DNA of 30,797 nucleotides from Nautiliaceae bacterium (lineage in GTDB: Bacteria > Campylobacterota > Campylobacteria > Campylobacterales > Nautiliaceae), in NCBI GenBank assembly GCA_039831155.1, contig JBDONT010000031.1, positions 1-30,797 of the forward strand, given 5' to 3'. This document shows positions 5,886-16,468 of the stretch, piece by piece. Position 1 is the stretch's first letter, and each line of letters starts with the position of its first letter. The notes below the pieces were generated by a model, which ran no database searches, was not told where the DNA came from, and saw only the letters and a list, made by a program, of their open reading frames with translations. A program made the position numbers and the translations under genes.

Positions 5886-6782
5886 ATGCTAAAAGAAAAA
5901 CTTAAAGGAAAATATATAACACTAGAAACAACTCCTCCTAAATTACCGACTGTAGATTTAATGATTGAAAATATAAAAAAAGCCGACGTCATTAAATACA
6001 TAGACGGATTTTCCACAACCGACTGTCCTCTTAGTAAATTAAAATACAATTCAATCATTGCAGCTTTTAAGCTCCAACAGACATTCAAAAAACCGGTAAT
6101 TGCTACAATGAGTATGAGAGATAGAAATAAAATAGCCCTTCAAAGCGATTTACTGGGAGCAAACGATTTAGACGTAACGCATATCTTAGCCCTAACAGGA
6201 GACCCGGCAAAAATGAGTGACCAACCGAATACAAAAGGAGTAGTCGAAGGAAGCAGCATTTTACTACTAGAAATAATAAGAGCTTTTAACAACGGAATGG
6301 ATTACAGTGGAAAAGAGTTTAAAATAAAACCAAAACCGATTACCCCTTTTGCGGTAAGTAACTCTTACGCCAAAAACTTTTCTTATATTGAAAAAAAGAT
6401 GTATAAAAAAATTAAAAATTATGCAGTAGGAATTATAACCCAACCGGTATTTGATTTGGAAATAGCAAAAAAACTATTAAATATAAAACAAAATATCAAT
6501 AATGAATTTAATGACGAAAGAAAAGAGTCTGAAATTGTATTCGGATTTTTTCCCATTACAAAACTAAAAACCGCCCAATTTCTAAAATCTCACGTCCCAG
6601 GCATTTTTGTACCGGATATCTGGATAGAAAAACTCATAAAAGCTCATAAAATAAGTGAAGAAGAAGAGTTTAAAGTCGGAATGGAGTTATCAAGAAAACT
6701 TTTTAAAAACATTTTAAAATTACACCCAAAAGTCCATATAATGACTGCTAATAAATTTGAAATAGTAAAAGAGCTTTTTTAA
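5886..6782 (+). CDS. metF: 5,10-methylenetetrahydrofolate reductase
   Basis: LETTPPK, TDCP, MRDRNKIALQS, LALTGDP, ITQPVFD, VPGIFVP motifs. Start moved to ATG 5886 (AAGGG SD upstream). Confidence 0.88.
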   Translation: MLKEKLKGKYITLETTPPKLPTVDLMIENIKKADVIKYIDGFSTTDCPLSKLKYNSIIAAFKLQQTFKKPVIATMSMRDRNKIALQSDLLGANDLDVTHILALTGDPAKMSDQPNTKGVVEGSSILLLEIIRAFNNGMDYSGKEFKIKPKPITPFAVSNSYAKNFSYIEKKMYKKIKNYAVGIITQPVFDLEIAKKLLNIKQNINNEFNDERKESEIVFGFFPITKLKTAQFLKSHVPGIFVPDIWIEKLIKAHKISEEEEFKVGMELSRKLFKNILKLHPKVHIMTANKFEIVKELF

Positions 6783-7603
6783 AAAGCTCTTAAATAACTT
6801 ACTAAGAATACGTTAGAATACGAATCTGCTCCACTTTTACTAAATTTACTTCTATTATAACTAACTTTTACGCTAGAAACTTTATCTAAAGAGTATTTAA
6901 CTGCTAGTCCATAACTATATTTATAATCTTCTCCCAAATTATAAACAGTAAATCCACCGTTTGCAACTTTATAAGCGTTTTTTCCAAAACTTCCACTTAT
7001 TGTTGTAGCCCAAGGTCCTTTATAGTTTTCCAATTTTAAATCAATATCCGTATAATTTGTTTTAGACGTATATCCGGACTTTGAAATATGAATATAATTT
7101 AATTTAGCCTCGGCATAAAAAGCTCCATCTTCCGCATAATAATTACCGAAATTAAATCCATATTTAGGAGAAATTTGATAAGCTTTAAAATTATCATAAG
7201 TAGACATATAAACATCAACTCCGACATTATATTTTAAATACTCATAATAAGTAGCTCCTGCGAACACTACATTATCGTATTTATCACTATTGTCTTTTTG
7301 GTTGATAAACATATTATGAATTCCGATTCTATAAGCATAATTATTACCATAATAATAATTACCCAAAAACGTAATATCGGTCTGTTTATAATTAGGGGTA
7401 GTATCTTTATATTTTATATACACATATTCCGTATCCAATTCAAACTTAAAAGGCAAAGAATCGATACTAGCATATACACCTACCAATCCGGCTTTATCTT
7501 TAGCGGTATTACCGCTATAATCTATAAAAGCTCCATACGGCATCACGTTCGCCGCCATTAAAGTCGTACCGAACAATGCTGCTATAGATAATAACTTTTT
7601 CAT
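6779..7603 (-). CDS. Putative outer-membrane beta-barrel protein, last gene of the RRE/ATP-grasp operon
   Basis: Sec signal peptide (MKKLLSIAALFGTTLMA), Tyr/Gly-rich alternating amphipathic strands, terminal strand VFLVSYLRAF ending in Phe (BAM signal); ATGA coupling to the upstream gene. Confidence 0.7.
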   Translation of the reverse strand: MKKLLSIAALFGTTLMAANVMPYGAFIDYSGNTAKDKAGLVGVYASIDSLPFKFELDTEYVYIKYKDTTPNYKQTDITFLGNYYYGNNYAYRIGIHNMFINQKDNSDKYDNVVFAGATYYEYLKYNVGVDVYMSTYDNFKAYQISPKYGFNFGNYYAEDGAFYAEAKLNYIHISKSGYTSKTNYTDIDLKLENYKGPWATTISGSFGKNAYKVANGGFTVYNLGEDYKYSYGLAVKYSLDKVSSVKVSYNRSKFSKSGADSYSNVFLVSYLRAF

Positions 7604-8181
7604 TTTATCTCCTTTAGTTTATATCCTAAATTTTTTTGATTTACTATTTCAAAACCAAGTTTTCTAAGATGAGAAATCAAAACTTTTATAGAATCAAGAC
7701 TCTCTATACTTTCACATTCCTGTAGAATTTCTTCTTTAGAAAGATATCTGTTACGATTTTTTATCAACGTTTCTAAAAGTTCTTTTTCAGCTCCACTTAA
7801 TTTAACGGGGATTGAACTTTTATACAACTCCCTCGCATTAAAATTATATAATAAATCCCCAAATTTAAAAACAAAATTTGTAGAATTTAAAACCTTTTTT
7901 TTTAAATACCTAAGGCGTATCAACAGCTTTTCATATTCATTATAAGAATAGCAATAATCACCTACTTCCAAAGCTTTTTTATAAATAAAAACATTACATT
8001 CATATGCTAAAAAAATAATCGTACTTTTTACAAAATCTTTTATTTCCAAATACTCTTTAAAATAATTAAAATCTACTACCAATACATCAAATTTTTTATT
8101 CAACACCTCATCAAAAAAAGATTCTTCATCCACTTTTTTTGCATTAGGTATATCCAGAAAAGAAAAATTTAATACTCTCAT
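7600..8181 (-). CDS. OmpR/PhoB-type winged-helix regulator with degenerate receiver domain
   Basis: C-terminal LSGAEKELLETL...LSKEEIL...IKVLISHLRK...GYKL Trans_reg_C signature; N-terminal receiver keeps VLVVD but lacks the acidic pocket, the Thr/Ser and the conserved Lys. Confidence 0.8.
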   Translation of the reverse strand: MRVLNFSFLDIPNAKKVDEESFFDEVLNKKFDVLVVDFNYFKEYLEIKDFVKSTIIFLAYECNVFIYKKALEVGDYCYSYNEYEKLLIRLRYLKKKVLNSTNFVFKFGDLLYNFNARELYKSSIPVKLSGAEKELLETLIKNRNRYLSKEEILQECESIESLDSIKVLISHLRKLGFEIVNQKNLGYKLKEIK

Positions 8182-8765
8182 TTATTAAAATATTCTTTTG
8201 CTACAACGTTATTAGGGTCTAGAATAAGCACGTTTTTAAAAATTTTACCGGCATCTCTTTTTGTAAGCTCATAAATTTTACCAAGTTCAACTAAAAACAG
8301 AACACTCGTAGGATATATACTTAACATTCTATTTACCAATATTTCAGCTACTTTATAGTTTTTTAAAGCTACAAGAGATAAGACTTCATAATAATTCCCA
8401 TAATAATTATAATAATCACTCTTTAAAATCACATCTCCTATTTTCAACGCATTTGAATAATCCCCCATAGCATAGTAAACTCTCATCATTCCAAGCTTAG
8501 CTTCCAATGAAGAAGGAATACTCATAGAAGCCTTTTGATAATGAAAAATAGAATTTTTATAATTCTTATTCAAATAAAAAAGCCATCCAAGCCTTAGATT
8601 AACCGTATAAGCATTAAGATATTTATTATAAAGAGGAATGAGAACTTTTATAGCGTCTTTATAATCCCCCATTTTTTCATAATTATAAGATTCATAATAA
8701 ATCTTTTTTATATCCATTGCAAACAAACCGACAAACAAACTAATAACCAAAATTATCTTTTTCAT
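8178..8765 (-). CDS. Exported tetratricopeptide-repeat protein
   Basis: Signal peptide MKKIILVISLFVGLFA; TPR-like units (LRLGWLFYLNKNYKNSIFHYQKA; LGMMRVYYAMGDYSNAL; LGKIYE...VLILDPNN). Confidence 0.8.
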   Translation of the reverse strand: MKKIILVISLFVGLFAMDIKKIYYESYNYEKMGDYKDAIKVLIPLYNKYLNAYTVNLRLGWLFYLNKNYKNSIFHYQKASMSIPSSLEAKLGMMRVYYAMGDYSNALKIGDVILKSDYYNYYGNYYEVLSLVALKNYKVAEILVNRMLSIYPTSVLFLVELGKIYELTKRDAGKIFKNVLILDPNNVVAKEYFNK

Positions 8766-10773
8766 TATATACTCTCCTTAATTCCATTCCGTTTTTCAAT
8801 TTTATTTTATCAAAACCTTTCTCATAAAACGAAAAATCCACCTCTCCGAATTTAGATAGAATTTTTAACTGTTCTTTTTTATAAACAACTTCTTTATTAA
8901 AAATTTTGAAATTAAAAGGCAATAAAAATTCAAACAATAATTTCTTAACCCCACTAAATCTAAATTCAAAAGAGATAATGTCTTTATATTCAACTTCTTT
9001 ATTTATCAAAGGAACTTTAGGAGCCAGCTTAAACAACTCTTTTAAAAAGCTCTCTTTTCCTTCATATTCATAAAAATAAAACAGCTTCTCATCCAAATAA
9101 AAAAACAGCTTATTCTCTCCGTCCCAAAAATAGAATTCTCCCTTTTCATTCATTTTTACCGTTATCTCTTTTTGAGAAATTTTTTCTCCCTCTTTTAATA
9201 CATCATATTTAAAAACATCATCCAAAATAAAAGTAAGTCTTAATTTCATAGATTTATCAATCACACTCGCTTCTATCTCCTCACCCTTTTTAGGTGAATC
9301 ATAATAATAAAGTCTATTGTCTTTTATAAAATCCACAAACTTAAAAGGTAAAGTCTCACTTCCCAAAACCCCGTATTTTTGAACTTGAATATGGATGTGA
9401 GGCTCCGGAGAATATCCACTGTTTCCACATTTACCTATAATATCTCCACCCCTAACATAATCCCCTACTTTTACAGTAATGGAATTTTGCATTAAATGAG
9501 AAATTTCAACAAAATATCCAAAATCACTTTTTATAATAATATAATTCCCCCAATTGTTAACTCTATCTACATTTCCTATAAAATTATCCGGTAAATCATT
9601 ACGCAAAGCAACCACATATCCATTGATAGGAGCCGTTACAACTTTTCCAAAAGCATAATAATCCTCTAAAAACAACCCGTCATTAGCATATGTTTTTCCA
9701 TTCTTTTTAATAACAAAATCATAAGCATATTTCCAGCTTCCCTTATGAGTCCACTCATCGTCAAAAGCTTGATATACACTCCACTTTCCGGTAAACGGGA
9801 GGTTTATTTTAATATCGTTTCCTCCAAATCTAAAAACCAAACTCAAATAAGAAAGCAGAGATTTTTCGGGAGTCGATTTTATAGCATAATTAAAATATTT
9901 ATACCCTACGCTAAATAAAAGCATAATAAACAAAAGCGTAATTAAATTAAAAGGAAGAGTATAAACCGGCAAAGAATAGATATTAAAAAACACTTCCATT
10001 GAATCAATCAACACAACAGAAAGCACCACTCCCAAAAAAGCCAAAAGAAAACTTTTAATATTGGGAATTAAAAATATTCCTCCAAGTGCCATAGCAATTA
10101 ACAAAAAGTTAAAGTTATAAGGAGAATAAAGGGCTTGAGAAAAAGGAATAAATAAAGAGTGTACAAAAACCCCTATCCAAAATCCCACAAAAGCTAGAAA
10201 AAACAGAATTCTAGAATAAAAAAGAAGTATCAACGCTATAAAAAACCCGGCAACCGTATAAGGTAAAAAGAAAATTGTCCCTAACGACTTGAAAAAAGAA
10301 TCAAAAGGCAAATTTATATCAAAAAGAGCTTTTCTGTGAAGCAAATTGATAAATAAATTGGTATATTTTAAACTGGCTAAATAAAAAAGCATACTCACAA
10401 AAGCAAAAGGCAAAGATAAAATAGGCAAAGAATACTTAATAAAAACCCTATTTAAGCTAAAAGAGACTAAAAATGTCAAAATCGAAAGCAATATAGTTAA
10501 GATTATCGTTACATACGTTACATCAAAAAAATACCCGACCCCCATTCCCACCAATAAAGAGTTATAAAGATAAAACCCGTATTTTAAATACTCATCCCTG
10601 ATATTAATAAATTCGGCAAACAAAATCGTAGAAATAATAGCAACAAGACCTAAAATCCCCACACTAGGCAATAAAAAAGAGAGCAAAAATAAAAATGCCC
10701 CTACTTTTAAATCCTGTAAAAAAAGAATGGAAACATAAGGTTTAAAAATAAATTTTATCTTTTTTATTTTCAA
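8740..10773 (-). CDS. Urea-transporter (UT)-fold membrane domain fused to an M23 zinc metallopeptidase domain
   Basis: N-terminal ~290 aa with about 10 TM segments and the duplicated UT signature LPILSLPF / LPVYTLPF plus YNSLLVG / FNFLLIA; then M23 motifs H343...D352 (HKGSWKYAYD), APINGYV, GNYIII, GDIIGKCGNSGYS, H459-x-H461. TTG start. Confidence 0.85.
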   Translation of the reverse strand: MKIKKIKFIFKPYVSILFLQDLKVGAFLFLLSFLLPSVGILGLVAIISTILFAEFINIRDEYLKYGFYLYNSLLVGMGVGYFFDVTYVTIILTILLSILTFLVSFSLNRVFIKYSLPILSLPFAFVSMLFYLASLKYTNLFINLLHRKALFDINLPFDSFFKSLGTIFFLPYTVAGFFIALILLFYSRILFFLAFVGFWIGVFVHSLFIPFSQALYSPYNFNFLLIAMALGGIFLIPNIKSFLLAFLGVVLSVVLIDSMEVFFNIYSLPVYTLPFNLITLLFIMLLFSVGYKYFNYAIKSTPEKSLLSYLSLVFRFGGNDIKINLPFTGKWSVYQAFDDEWTHKGSWKYAYDFVIKKNGKTYANDGLFLEDYYAFGKVVTAPINGYVVALRNDLPDNFIGNVDRVNNWGNYIIIKSDFGYFVEISHLMQNSITVKVGDYVRGGDIIGKCGNSGYSPEPHIHIQVQKYGVLGSETLPFKFVDFIKDNRLYYYDSPKKGEEIEASVIDKSMKLRLTFILDDVFKYDVLKEGEKISQKEITVKMNEKGEFYFWDGENKLFFYLDEKLFYFYEYEGKESFLKELFKLAPKVPLINKEVEYKDIISFEFRFSGVKKLLFEFLLPFNFKIFNKEVVYKKEQLKILSKFGEVDFSFYEKGFDKIKLKNGMELRRVYNEKDNFGY

Positions 10774-10777
10774 TTTC

Positions 10778-12115
10778 TTAACCTTTTAAGAAATCCGGAA
10801 TAATCTCTTTTTCCACAACATACTCTAAATTATCGGCTTCTCTTATTAAGTGAGTATTTGAGTCTTTGTCTATAAGTACAATTTTAGGTCTATATCTGAT
10901 AAACTGCATAGATTGAGTAACGTTATAAGCCCCTACCGGCCAAATACTAAGTACCGTACCTCTCTCAAGAGGTGGTAACATAATATTTTCTGCAATAATA
11001 TCAATATTCATACATAAAGGTCCGTTTATCTGACTATGTTCATTTAACCCTTCATATCTTTTATCAAGAGATATCTCAAAATTGTACCAAAACGCCGTAT
11101 ACAAAAGATTCACTCCAGCATCTACAATATAACTCTTTTTACCATCCGGCATTCTTTTGGAAGCAAATACACTTGTTAATAAAAATCCGGCTTCATCTAT
11201 CAAAGCACGACCGGTTTCTAAATAAAGCTTAGGAAGTTTCCCTTTATTATGTTCAAAAATAGCATTAGTAACAGCCTCTGCATATTCATCGGCACTAGGG
11301 ACTATAACTTCCGGAGCCTGATATACACCTTTTAGTCTATTTTTTGAAGCAAATCCACCTCCTATATCAATATATTCAATCTCATATCCGAAATCTTTTT
11401 CAACTCTGTTTTTAAGTTCTATCAATTTTTTAGTTTCATTTGTATAAGCTTCGGCACTTAACATAAAAGTACCTATATGAGAATGAAGTCCGATTAAATA
11501 AAGTTTTTTACCTTCAAAAATTCTTTTTATGGCATCATAAGCCTCACCGTTATCGATATTAAATCCGAATCTACTCCATTGAGGATAAACTCCCGTATCC
11601 ATATTACATCTAATAGCCACCGGAATTTCTATTCCAAGCTCTTCCGCTATCTCTTCAAGGTCATTTATTTCATACCAATGGTCAATATGAATTTTAGCTC
11701 CTTCTTTTACTGCTACTTTTAAAGTTTCTTTTGGTTTGTAAGGTCCATTAAAGATTATATCCTTTCCTTCAATTCCAAGACGTCTTGCTTTTTGGTATTC
11801 AAATTCACTAACAACTTCGGCTTTACTTCCAAGTTTATGATAAATTTTACAAATAGCGTCAAAATAGTTTGTTTTATAACTCCACCAAAACTCAACTTCC
11901 GGATATCTACTTGAAAAAGCGTTTTTAAACTCAAGATATTTATCTTCAATTGCTCTTTGACTAAACACAAAAAGTGGACTTCCGTATTTTTCCGTAAGTT
12001 CTCTAACACTTACCCCGTCAATCTCACCTCTTATTTTTTGGGTTTTAAGTGGACTTCCATATTTACTCGCCATTGCAAAATCAACTCTATTAATAGTAGG
12101 TTTTTCATAATTCAT
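10778..12115 (-). CDS. Fold-type III PLP-dependent decarboxylase (diaminopimelate/ornithine decarboxylase superfamily, MccE-like; probably not LysA) with N-terminal extension
   Basis: SYKTN (PLP Lys), IFNGPYK, SRFG, HSHIGT, DIGGGF, ETGR, DAG, GPLCMNID, GAY motifs; AAGGAG SD. Confidence 0.85.
   Translation of the reverse strand: MNYEKPTINRVDFAMASKYGSPLKTQKIRGEIDGVSVRELTEKYGSPLFVFSQRAIEDKYLEFKNAFSSRYPEVEFWWSYKTNYFDAICKIYHKLGSKAEVVSEFEYQKARRLGIEGKDIIFNGPYKPKETLKVAVKEGAKIHIDHWYEINDLEEIAEELGIEIPVAIRCNMDTGVYPQWSRFGFNIDNGEAYDAIKRIFEGKKLYLIGLHSHIGTFMLSAEAYTNETKKLIELKNRVEKDFGYEIEYIDIGGGFASKNRLKGVYQAPEVIVPSADEYAEAVTNAIFEHNKGKLPKLYLETGRALIDEAGFLLTSVFASKRMPDGKKSYIVDAGVNLLYTAFWYNFEISLDKRYEGLNEHSQINGPLCMNIDIIAENIMLPPLERGTVLSIWPVGAYNVTQSMQFIRYRPKIVLIDKDSNTHLIREADNLEYVVEKEIIPDFLKG
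11972..12064 (-). repeat. Direct repeat encoding KYGSPL twice in the decarboxylase N-terminus
   Basis: aagtggacttccgtattt (11972-11989) and aagtggacttccatattt (12047-12064): 17/18 identical, 75 nt (25 codons) apart, in frame. Confidence 0.85.
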
Positions 12116-12130
12116 AATTCACTCCTTAAA

Positions 12131-13452: not shown

Positions 13453-16253
<2,801 letters not shown>

Positions 16254-16262
16254 CACAATCCT

Positions 16263-16367
16263 TTATTTTGGTATCAAACTTTTAAGCCATAAATATATTA
16301 TAAAACTAATTCCCACAATTGCTACTATATTCTCCACTATAAATAAAAAACTAACCGGCTTATCCAT
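16263..16367 (-). CDS. Putative 34-aa single-TM small protein (MDKPVSFLFIVENIVAIVGISFIIYLWLKSLIPK)
   Basis: Translated by hand; TAATG stop/start overlap with the upstream 33-aa ORF, AGGG SD-like sequence; stop sits beside the gatA SD. Confidence 0.5.
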   Translation of the reverse strand: MDKPVSFLFIVENIVAIVGISFIIYLWLKSLIPK

Positions 16368-16468
16368 TATAAATCCCTAATTATAGGCCAGTTATACTTA
16401 TAAGCCAGATATCCGAGTATCATTGCAAGTGGTATAAGAGAGGCAATAAATACTTCACCTACACTCAT
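16367..16468 (-). CDS. Putative 33-aa single-TM small protein ([33 protein letters not shown])
   Basis: Translated by hand; ATGA overlap with the upstream 60-aa ORF, AAGGA SD 7 nt upstream, one hydrophobic helix. Confidence 0.6.
   Translation of the reverse strand: MSVGEVFIASLIPLAMILGYLAYKYNWPIIRDL

Follow-up and report, generated by a model that had tools for sequence, protein, structure and literature searches.

The locus considered here raises a simple question: what does a RiPP (a peptide made by ribosomes and modified after translation) recognition element (RRE) recognise when no gene for a precursor peptide accompanies it? The element in question is a PqqD-like RRE encoded in a stretch of 30,797 nucleotides from a Nautiliaceae bacterium (positions 1 to 30,797 of contig JBDONT010000031.1, assembly GCA_039831155.1; hereafter the window), at the head of a cassette that continues with genes for an ATP-grasp carboxylate-amine ligase, a pyridoxal 5'-phosphate (PLP) decarboxylase and a membrane protein in which a urea-transporter-like (UT) channel is joined to an M23 peptidase domain (UT-M23). 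A sequence-only reading of the window had noticed a YxxPx[I/L] motif at the N-terminus of the decarboxylase and had suggested that the RRE binds this extension, either as an adaptor or because the extension is a leader and core built into the enzyme. The motif has proved to be real and is conserved across phyla and, to judge from comparative sequence evidence, the RRE probably binds the tail that carries it.

The decarboxylase N-terminus reads MNYEKPTINRVDFAMASKYGSPL, and the lysA model TIGR01048 aligns with the protein from residue 27 (model position 6), leaving about 21 residues ahead of the normal fold. These residues, some 20 in number, carry the pattern [YWF]-E-[KR]-P-x-[ILV]...K-x-G. Occurrence of the motif is in itself uncommon and not remarkable, since [YWF]xxPx[ILV] is found within the first 14 residues of 9 of the 1234 open reading frames (ORFs) of at least 150 aa in the same genome, mostly in signal peptides; it is conservation among homologues that makes the motif real. 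A scan of one genome per species gave 600 candidate stretches, 590 of which encode a relative. The best 80 relatives come from Campylobacterota, Aquificota, Thermotogota, Gemmatimonadota, Calditrichota, Planctomycetota, Verrucomicrobiota, Cyanobacteria, Bacteroidota, Ignavibacteria, Myxococcota, Desulfobacterota and others, and all of them align from query residue 1-8, the one that starts at residue 8 being cut by a contig end. The motif and a complete N-terminus are present in 98 of 108 loci; the other ten are five contig-end cuts (L021-L024, L071), four outgroup genes (L026-L029) that are 22-25% identical and have no tail, and locus L078, described below.

In an alignment of 78 decarboxylase sequences from more than 12 phyla (A3, to which the following counts refer) the proline at position 6 is invariant, so that YxxP is indeed kept in homologues, and position 3 is aromatic throughout (Y 73, W 3, F 2). 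Position 4 is E in 60 sequences and position 5 K or R in 73, while position 8 is I in 65, L in 5 and V in 5. Further along the tail, K or R occupies position 10 (69/78), G position 14 (56/78), N or S position 17 (54 and 18, respectively), K position 18 (77/78), F or Y position 19 (70/78), and G or, in six sequences, A position 20 (G 71). The sequence-only reading had named the Ser and Lys of MASKYG as candidate core residues; these counts favour the lysine, Lys18, and not the serine. Mean column entropy is 1.58 bits over tail residues 3-20, 2.55 bits over the linker (residues 21-31) and 1.34 bits over the catalytic part, the tail being conserved to about the same degree as the catalytic domain. 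The distance from the start codon to the aromatic is 1-10 residues, most often 4, and beyond the aromatic the spacing is fixed: [YWF]xxPx(11)Kx[GA] fits 96 of the 98 tails with no variation in length, K18 and G20 sitting 15 and 17 residues after the aromatic. When the 18 tail codons of 25 Campylobacterota loci are compared with those of the window there are 124 synonymous and 69 non-synonymous differences, with counts of 16 and 0 at the Pro and of 14 and 0 at the Ile, and with zero non-synonymous changes at the tail Y, K, P, I, F, S, K, Y and G. The tail is thus translated and under purifying selection. Translation from Met15, which the sequence-only reading had named as a way in which its proposal could fail, is ruled out by the ribosome-binding site (AAGGAG, 6 nt before Met1), the conservation of the tail and the synonymous excess.

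A separate feature of this region is a direct repeat of 18 nt, at 11972-11989 and 12047-12064, with 17/18 positions identical and the copies 75 nt apart. It encodes K-Y-G-S-P-L twice, first as tail residues 18-23 and again as residues 43-48, where the fold starts; the corresponding sequences in other phyla are N-K-F-G-S-S-P (tail) and [KR]-[FY]-G-S-P-L (fold). The tail may have originated through duplication of the first strand of the fold.

The identity of the RRE bears directly on what the tail is likely to be. Searched singly against the PDB, the window RRE has a weak match to TbiB1 (E 0.014). A profile of its family (alignment A2, 78 members) matches TbiB1 (5V1U) at 6.2e-14 over the full length and TfuB1 (6JX3) at 3.5e-12, with a lasso chaperone (9X90, 3.7e-6) and PqqD (3G2B, 1.2e-4) among the lower matches, and by this comparison the family is closest to the lasso B1 chaperones. 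The NCBIfam model lasso_PqqD_Strm gives the window RRE 26.6 bits, with a cut-off of 70. A role as the PqqD of pyrroloquinoline quinone (PQQ) biosynthesis was rejected on its TIGR03859 score (21.1 bits vs a cut-off of 46) and on its neighbours, the ATP-grasp and the decarboxylase. The best-conserved residues of the RRE are F15, G20, N26, D63, F67 and L71; the last three, which by the usual RRE topology would lie on one face of helix alpha3, fall in a stretch whose counterpart in the alignment with TbiB1 is the R-D-x-x-D-F-x-x-x-L segment. The genome contains no PF05402 gene other than that of the RRE. No match to the B2-type leader protease (PF13471) was found in that genome, which is 96.7% complete, and the matches to PF00733, the Asn-synthetase family, are confined to other contigs, with no lasso cyclase near the RRE; on these grounds the locus is not a lasso cluster.

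The correspondence with lasso leaders nevertheless extends beyond the motif. Discrete lasso RREs recognise [Y/W]xxPx[L/V/I/F/A] and require the YxxPxL part only (PMC13381572), and PMC12710340 describes YxxP as a characterised recognition sequence, bound in the cleft of alpha3 and beta3. In lasso leaders (PMC10368454) the motif occupies positions -17 to -12, a further conserved residue at -2 takes part in recognition, and the core most often begins with Gly. When the tail aromatic is set at -17 in this register, the two later positions that are best conserved, Lys18 and Gly20, coincide with -2 and +1, as they do in 96 of 98 tails. The tail therefore reads as a lasso-type leader in both sequence and register, save for the Lys at -2 and the enzyme that follows.

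The tail and the RRE also travel together. The order RRE, ATP-grasp, decarboxylase, UT-M23 is constant in nearly all of the roughly 90 loci with enough flanking sequence, from more than 12 phyla, and genes for an outer-membrane-protein-like (OMP-like) protein and a tetratricopeptide repeat (TPR) protein usually come next. With iterated profiles, 90 of the 108 loci gave an RRE, 95 an ATP-grasp and 93 a UT-M23, most misses being contig ends. Among 201 Campylobacterota genomes the tail profile matches 14, once each; 13 of these matches lie in frames of 443-458 aa and the remaining one in a broken gene of a pseudogenised cassette. The same 14 genomes, and no others, carry an RRE at E <=1e-20, located 1.1-1.25 kb upstream of the tail, while five weaker PqqD-family matches occur elsewhere in the set. 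Of 201 cyanobacterial genomes, the three with an intact tail-bearing decarboxylase are the only three with an RRE match of at least 96 bits; two further genomes retain truncated RRE remnants, one of them beside a 47-aa tail remnant, and the remaining RRE-profile matches, at 51 bits or less, are other RREs. In two dispersed cases, an Aquificota genome and a Hydrogenimonas genome, the decarboxylase and its tail lie away from the cassette and the RRE is still found elsewhere in the genome. One such lone cognate RRE, in an Aquificota genome (G001; L109, 1501-1752), is situated between hisF and a gene for a sigma-54-type activator with GAF and AAA+ domains, and the decarboxylase that carries the tail (L046) is far away.

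The sequence-only reading had proposed a comparison with homologues that lack an RRE neighbour, and in these the tail is indeed missing or degenerate. Relatives in this sister group are 39-44% identical, and where the tail is degenerate the aromatic has been lost; RRE, ATP-grasp and UT-M23 were found nearby in 0 of 7 such loci, four of which have at least 3 kb of upstream sequence, and an RRE in 0 of 5 of their genomes. Their neighbourhoods have nothing in common with one another; in L118 (6276-8935) a tail-degenerate relative stands beside multicopper oxidase and CopB genes. The motif is present in 26 of the 99 representatives with a recognisable fold start (among the best 150, after 50% clustering), and on a quick tree of 82 representatives, made with the tail removed, its distribution needs 8 changes, compared with a mean of 13.2 for shuffled states and with 0 of 500 shuffles as low. 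Tail-bearing representatives cluster on this tree, yet form no single clean clade.

Several cassettes are in various states of decay or rearrangement. In L078, from a Pseudanabaena metagenome-assembled genome, no RRE was found in 4.6 Mb and YxxP has been lost through rearrangement; the decaying cassette (5959-9709) is missing both RRE and ATP-grasp, its UT-M23 gene is split into two frames, and the start of the decarboxylase is overlapped by a gene for a histidine kinase that runs on the other strand. The cassette of G070 (L123, 2714-7412) is broken, with two frames for the decarboxylase and three for UT-M23. In G299 (L129, 5079-5458) a truncated RRE is followed directly by the 47-aa tail remnant, with neither an ATP-grasp nor a decarboxylase body. 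L040 has, at 188-917, a second RRE copy identical in sequence to the RRE of L039, together with a 162-aa ATP-grasp fragment, upstream of a complete cassette; the extra copy could be a duplication or an assembly artefact.

The sequence-only reading had seen no evident free-standing precursor, and none was found in any search made. When the 8050 small ORFs of 12-80 aa in 81 loci were clustered, only out-of-frame shadows of large genes and low-complexity families emerged. In the genome of the window, a tail profile of 33 positions had the decarboxylase as its sole match (E 1.1e-11; next 0.78) among all 55,251 six-frame ORFs of at least 15 aa, and in five genomes from five other phyla it gave one match each, always the decarboxylase. 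In the 61 loci with 1 kb upstream of the RRE, small ORFs that begin with or close to [YW]xxPx[LIVFA] numbered 8 sense vs 5 antisense and were mutually unrelated. On the strength of the ORF clustering, the tail-profile scans (201 + 201 + 5 genomes) and the YxxP count, a separate precursor was rejected. Individual candidates fared no better. An 18-aa ORF with YNWPII (16367-16423, minus strand, upstream of gatA) was rejected as it is conserved only in L001, which is 97% identical and in which its start codon is altered, and is absent from 19 other Nautiliales-like loci; it is probably a chance occurrence. Short tail-bearing frames in G070 and G299 are the products of broken cassettes rather than free peptides. 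A very short, divergent peptide is still conceivable in view of the fosfazinomycin precedent, where the 21/22-mer FzmZ illustrates how very short precursors come to be overlooked (PMC13622209).

A model of the RRE with the tail, another check that the sequence-only reading had proposed, came out positive in the weak score band. Structure prediction from the RRE alignment A2 and residues 1-40 of A3 gave an ipSAE of 0.54 (0.54, 0.57 and 0.54 in the individual runs), compared with 0.08 for the best of three controls; the runs share at least 92% of contacts and the partner pLDDT is at least 51. In calibration, 58 of 80 solved complexes and 2 of 110 mismatched pairs came up to the ipSAE mark; the range up to 0.60 holds only 7 of the 80 solved complexes and both of the mismatches that pass. 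The pass may reflect likeness rather than binding, because lasso B1-leader complexes (5V1V, 6JX3) have already been solved, and it is taken as mild support in light of the strong prior from the comparative data.

The decarboxylase itself is a fold-type III enzyme, with both family domains above cut-off (PF02784 at 108 bits and PF00278 at 45.8 bits), and K81, H211/H213, G252-254, E300, R303, D332, C368, D372 and Y397 are invariant in the 78 sequences. The catalytic roles of these residues, that of the PLP lysine included, are presumed from LysA and ornithine decarboxylase. LysA function was rejected: the TIGR01048 score is 235.1 bits, below the cut-off of 297.9, and a genuine lysA (541 bits) is present on contig C20 of the same genome, so the protein is a LysA paralogue with another role. 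Its closest PDB entry is FslC (7KH2, 3.1e-54), with which its family shares, in alignment, a Cys-Met active-site motif where LysA has Cys-Glu; the score against the curated FslC family NF041039 is 218.7 bits vs a cut-off of 500. The PDB names FslC an N-citrylornithine decarboxylase and BtrK an L-glutamyl-[BtrI acyl-carrier protein] decarboxylase, and these closest solved decarboxylases use substrates that are acylated or carrier-bound at the distal group. The partners look catalytically intact, in terms of the PLP lysine and active site, the ATP-grasp motifs and the M23 PHxH. In the ATP-grasp family (profile A4: 2PN1 at 1.8e-21, the carbamoyl phosphate synthetase [CPSase] large chain at 1.1e-17) all 79 sequences share EINPR and the Lys/Glu residues without exception, and a look-up in the ESM Atlas returned 'carboxylate-amine ligase' and nothing further. 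A graspetide assignment was rejected, as the ATP-grasp matches only the ATPgrasp_Ter and CPSase-type families and a precursor ORF was not found. The M23 part resembles lysostaphin, LytM and TagE, and its PHxH is kept in 85 of 85 homologues of at least 600 aa.

The cassette genes are arranged head to tail on the minus strand (Table 1). The start of the ATP-grasp gene overlaps the stop of the RRE gene by 4 nt, 15 nt separate the ATP-grasp from the decarboxylase and 4 nt the decarboxylase from UT-M23, and 78 nt lie between guaB, which ends at 13453, and the start of the RRE gene (13374); the operon layout and spacing of the sequence-only reading, with gaps of at most 15 nt and 78 nt upstream, thus agree with the coordinates. 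The proteins and loci closest to the window are those of Nautilia, Lebetimonas, Caminibacter and Nitratiruptor, the window itself being Nautilia-like (Nautiliales). Homologues of the TPR protein occur in 69 of the 108 loci and those of the OMP-like protein in 44, mostly directly after UT-M23; the 274-aa OMP-like protein had no Pfam match, even at E 10. The winged-helix protein has an OmpR-type C-terminal winged helix without a Pfam receiver-domain match, and matches in 15 of the 108 loci, its close homologues being restricted to Nautiliales-like loci.

Table 1. Coordinates of the cassette genes and of the elements of the decarboxylase tail in the window.
Feature	Position	Strand	Basis
PqqD-like RRE, 78 aa	13138-13374	-	Pfam PF05402 39.1 bits, cut-off 23.4
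ATP-grasp carboxylate-amine ligase (ATPgrasp_Ter / CPSase-like), 336 aa	12131-13141	-	Pfam PF15632, PF02786, PF02655
Shine-Dalgarno sequence AAGGAG	12122-12127	-	6 nt ahead of the decarboxylase ATG, direct sequence reading
PLP decarboxylase, 445 aa	10778-12115	-	ATG at 12113-12115
Leader-like tail, decarboxylase residues 1-20 (MNYEKPTINRVDFAMASKYG)	12056-12115	-	column statistics, 78 homologues
Candidate recognition motif Y3-E-K-P6-T-I8, equivalent to lasso leader -17 to -12	12092-12109	-	register from PMC10368454
K18-Y19-G20, lasso register -2, -1, +1	12056-12064	-	K 77/78, F/Y 70/78, G 71/78 + A 6/78
Variable linker, residues 21-31	12023-12055	-	mean column entropy 2.55 bits
Fold-type III PLP decarboxylase body	10778-12022	-	PF02784 108 bits, PF00278 45.8 bits
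UT-M23 membrane protein, 677 aa: urea-transporter-like channel, M23 domain and C-terminal domain	8740-10773	-	PF03253 204 bits, PF01551 48.3 bits; C-terminal domain without family assignment
TPR protein, 195 aa, signal-like N-terminal segment	8178-8765	-	Pfam TPR families
OmpR-type winged-helix protein, 193 aa	7600-8181	-	between TPR and OMP-like genes
Outer-membrane-protein-like, 274 aa, signal-like N-terminus, C-terminal Phe	6779-7603	-	

How these parts might work together can be framed as a sequence of steps. The proposal that we favour, and which seems to us evenly poised between right and wrong, is that the decarboxylase contains its own lasso-type leader, namely its first 20 or so residues, which the RRE delivers. 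The B1-like RRE would bind Y3-x-x-P6-x-I8 in its beta3/alpha3 cleft, tethering the decarboxylase to the RRE and to the gene-coupled ATP-grasp, and G14...N17-K18-[FY]19-G20, at the position of the lasso -2/+1 processing site, would then be presented to a co-encoded enzyme. On the best reading this putative presentation of Lys18/Gly20 may be to the ATP-grasp and/or the M23 peptidase. The gene for a discrete RRE usually lies next to that of the enzyme it serves, and delivery of K18-x-G20 to the ATP-grasp is favoured because the RRE gene always stands beside the ATP-grasp gene, with stop and start overlapping in the window. In the favoured version of the final step, the ATP-grasp would join a carboxylate substrate to the Lys18 amine, the tethered substrate would be decarboxylated by the attached PLP domain, and the cytoplasmic M23 domain would free the product into the urea-channel-like pore, to go onward via the periplasmic TPR protein and the outer-membrane protein. 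The distal-tethered substrates of FslC and BtrK would fit with a substrate held on Lys18 by its distal carboxylate. These later events are less secure than the docking: covalent chemistry on Lys18 is a tentative suggestion, and release and export by UT-M23 a somewhat more doubtful one. Equally doubtful is the complete scheme in which the tail would serve as a swinging-arm scaffold, with Lys18 loaded by the ATP-grasp, decarboxylated by the same or a partner subunit and cut by M23 into the pore.

A number of points weigh against this proposal. The closest solved relatives of the ATP-grasp (CPSase, biotin carboxylases) activate bicarbonate or carbamate and are not amino-acid ligases. The M23 domain is no more than probably cytoplasmic, a placement taken from the Lys-rich ends of the UT domain and from the usual UT topology. 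The tail may be packed on its own decarboxylase. The genomes in which co-occurrence was counted are related, so that the counts do not amount to independent trials, and a test for covariation between RRE and tail (mutual information with average product correction, 78 pairs) found only a split between Campylobacterota and the rest, at tail position 14. The complex prediction supports RRE-tail docking weakly, its score lying in the weak band. In P0130, a protein of 871 aa from the representative library, an ATP-grasp, a linker of about 60 aa, the tail and the decarboxylase are fused without an RRE; the tail is internal, with Arg at the Lys18 position. Word-based searches with the decarboxylase N-terminus and the RRE profile, which are weak searches, found no longer fused forms, P0130 having come from the representative search.

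Among other explanations, docking could be the whole function of the tail, and the sequence-only reading had already allowed for this. The RRE would then bridge the unmodified tail and the ATP-grasp, channelling a free small-molecule intermediate; for example, the ATP-grasp could make an acylated amino acid that is decarboxylated in the manner of FslC. The evidence for docking serves this pure adaptor as well as it serves the favoured proposal, the FslC-like 'CM' motif and the best PDB match, to FslC, suggest that the substrate is a free amino acid acylated at its distal group, and the natural ATP-grasp-decarboxylase fusion P0130 manages with Arg in place of Lys18. Docking alone, however, leaves K18 (77/78), G20 and their fixed spacing unexplained, when lasso RREs need only the YxxPxL part (PMC13381572). 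We consider such an adaptor unlikely. Adaptor and built-in leader with core are the two alternatives of the sequence-only reading, and the evidence here does not separate them; that the RRE binds the extension at all, as it also held, is sustained by conservation, B1-likeness, co-occurrence and the lack of a separate precursor, with binding itself resting on the weak complex prediction.

Removal of the tail as a leader, or as the propeptide of a zymogen, is quite improbable, and so, to the same degree, is a tail that has nothing to do with the RRE. In the case of removal, the RRE would present the tail to M23, a non-homologous replacement for the lasso B2 protease, which would cut between residue 19 and Gly20; the decarboxylase would be activated or relocated, or a 19-residue peptide freed, and the ATP-grasp would act on the new Gly amine like a lasso cyclase or have an unrelated metabolic role. 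K18 and G20 do fall exactly at lasso -2 and +1, the cassette holds analogues of the three lasso activities (RRE, protease and ATP-dependent amide-forming enzyme), and the M23 domain, with PHxH in 85/85, resembles Gly-specific endopeptidases (lysostaphin, LytM). Yet core positions 7-9 have no acidic residue (26-28 are Q, K and I in the window, with a consensus of R/Q, K/R and V/I), the RRE gene always adjoins that of the ATP-grasp and not that of M23, a urea-channel-like pore would presumably be too narrow for a 19-mer, and the tail is internal in P0130. If instead the tail were a structural, oligomerisation, regulatory or localisation element, the RRE would serve another peptide or partner. 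The likeness of the tail K-[FY]-G-S-P to the fold-start [KR]-[FY]-G-S-P-L, 25 residues on, would allow for a structural duplicate, RRE-tail binding is as yet a prediction, and very short precursors such as the 21/22-mer FzmZ have been missed before (PMC13622209). Against this, the motif matches the recognition sequence of the closest solved relatives of the RRE, motif and RRE are kept or lost together, and the searches turned up neither a second tail-like peptide nor a conserved one with YxxP (8 unrelated small YxxP ORFs sense vs 5 antisense in 61 loci).

Parallels with known systems are instructive in this context. The butirosin proteins BtrI, BtrJ and BtrK, together with FslC, likewise combine an ATP-grasp ligase (BtrJ) with a LysA-like PLP decarboxylase acting on a distal-tethered or acylated substrate; BtrI, however, is a carrier protein of the phosphopantetheinyl type, and an RRE is not known to take part. 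In the borosins (OphMA-type methyltransferases) enzyme and peptide substrate share one polypeptide, a fusion like that suggested here, but the borosin core is C-terminal and is modified by its own enzyme, and an RRE is not known to be involved. The likeness to lasso B1 proteins and their leaders (TbiB1-TbiA, TfuB1/FusB1-FusA; 5V1V, 6JX3) consists of a B1-like discrete RRE beside an ATP-dependent enzyme and of a [YWF]xxPx[ILV] tail with lasso spacing (PMC10368454) to a conserved -2/+1 pair. The leader-like sequence here is the N-terminus of a 445-aa PLP enzyme, in contrast to a peptide of 30-50 aa; there is no B2 protease in the genome and no cyclase nearby, position -2 is Lys and not Thr, and there is no Asp or Glu at core 7-9 (residues 26-28 Q, K, I). 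In fosfazinomycin biosynthesis (FzmZ) and in the pearlins/PEARLs, small molecules are built on a peptide and freed by a peptidase, and in fosfazinomycin a YxxP-bearing peptide engages RRE-containing machinery (PMC13622209); the scaffold there is a free 21/22-mer with chemistry at its C-terminus, whereas the putative scaffold here is fused to a tailoring enzyme and has an internal Lys as candidate site. By analogy, the recognition logic would be that of lasso B1, and chemistry on a YxxP ribosomal scaffold would follow the fosfazinomycin/pearlin idea. In the full-text literature no description was found of this cassette or of an RRE leader on a PLP enzyme, although supplementary tables of RRE surveys may list the family with the RREs that lack a precursor; the main text of RRE-Finder mentions neither ATP-grasp nor decarboxylase. 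An N-terminal RRE-type leader on a PLP enzyme, in a cassette with UT-M23, is in this combination unlike lasso B1 systems, fosfazinomycin/pearlins and borosins.

The wider meaning of this arrangement concerns both the discovery of such systems and their biology. RREs are a class-independent flag for RiPP clusters, and mining tools seek a small precursor ORF nearby; such mining would report an orphan here, because it is a full-size enzyme that carries the sole conserved sequence of the kind that RREs recognise. One peptide, three small soluble proteins and a mass spectrometer would suffice for a direct test of the hypothesis. If the RRE does read the tail of the enzyme, leader-RRE recognition would extend to protein-protein addressing or to an enzyme-fused carrier. 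If the proposal is true, it would also provide a first handle on a six-gene cassette of hundreds of species for which no published description was found, and would point to a carrier-peptide pathway, conserved in diderms of more than 12 phyla, in which carrier and tailoring enzyme form one protein and the carrier is addressed by an RRE of the lasso type.

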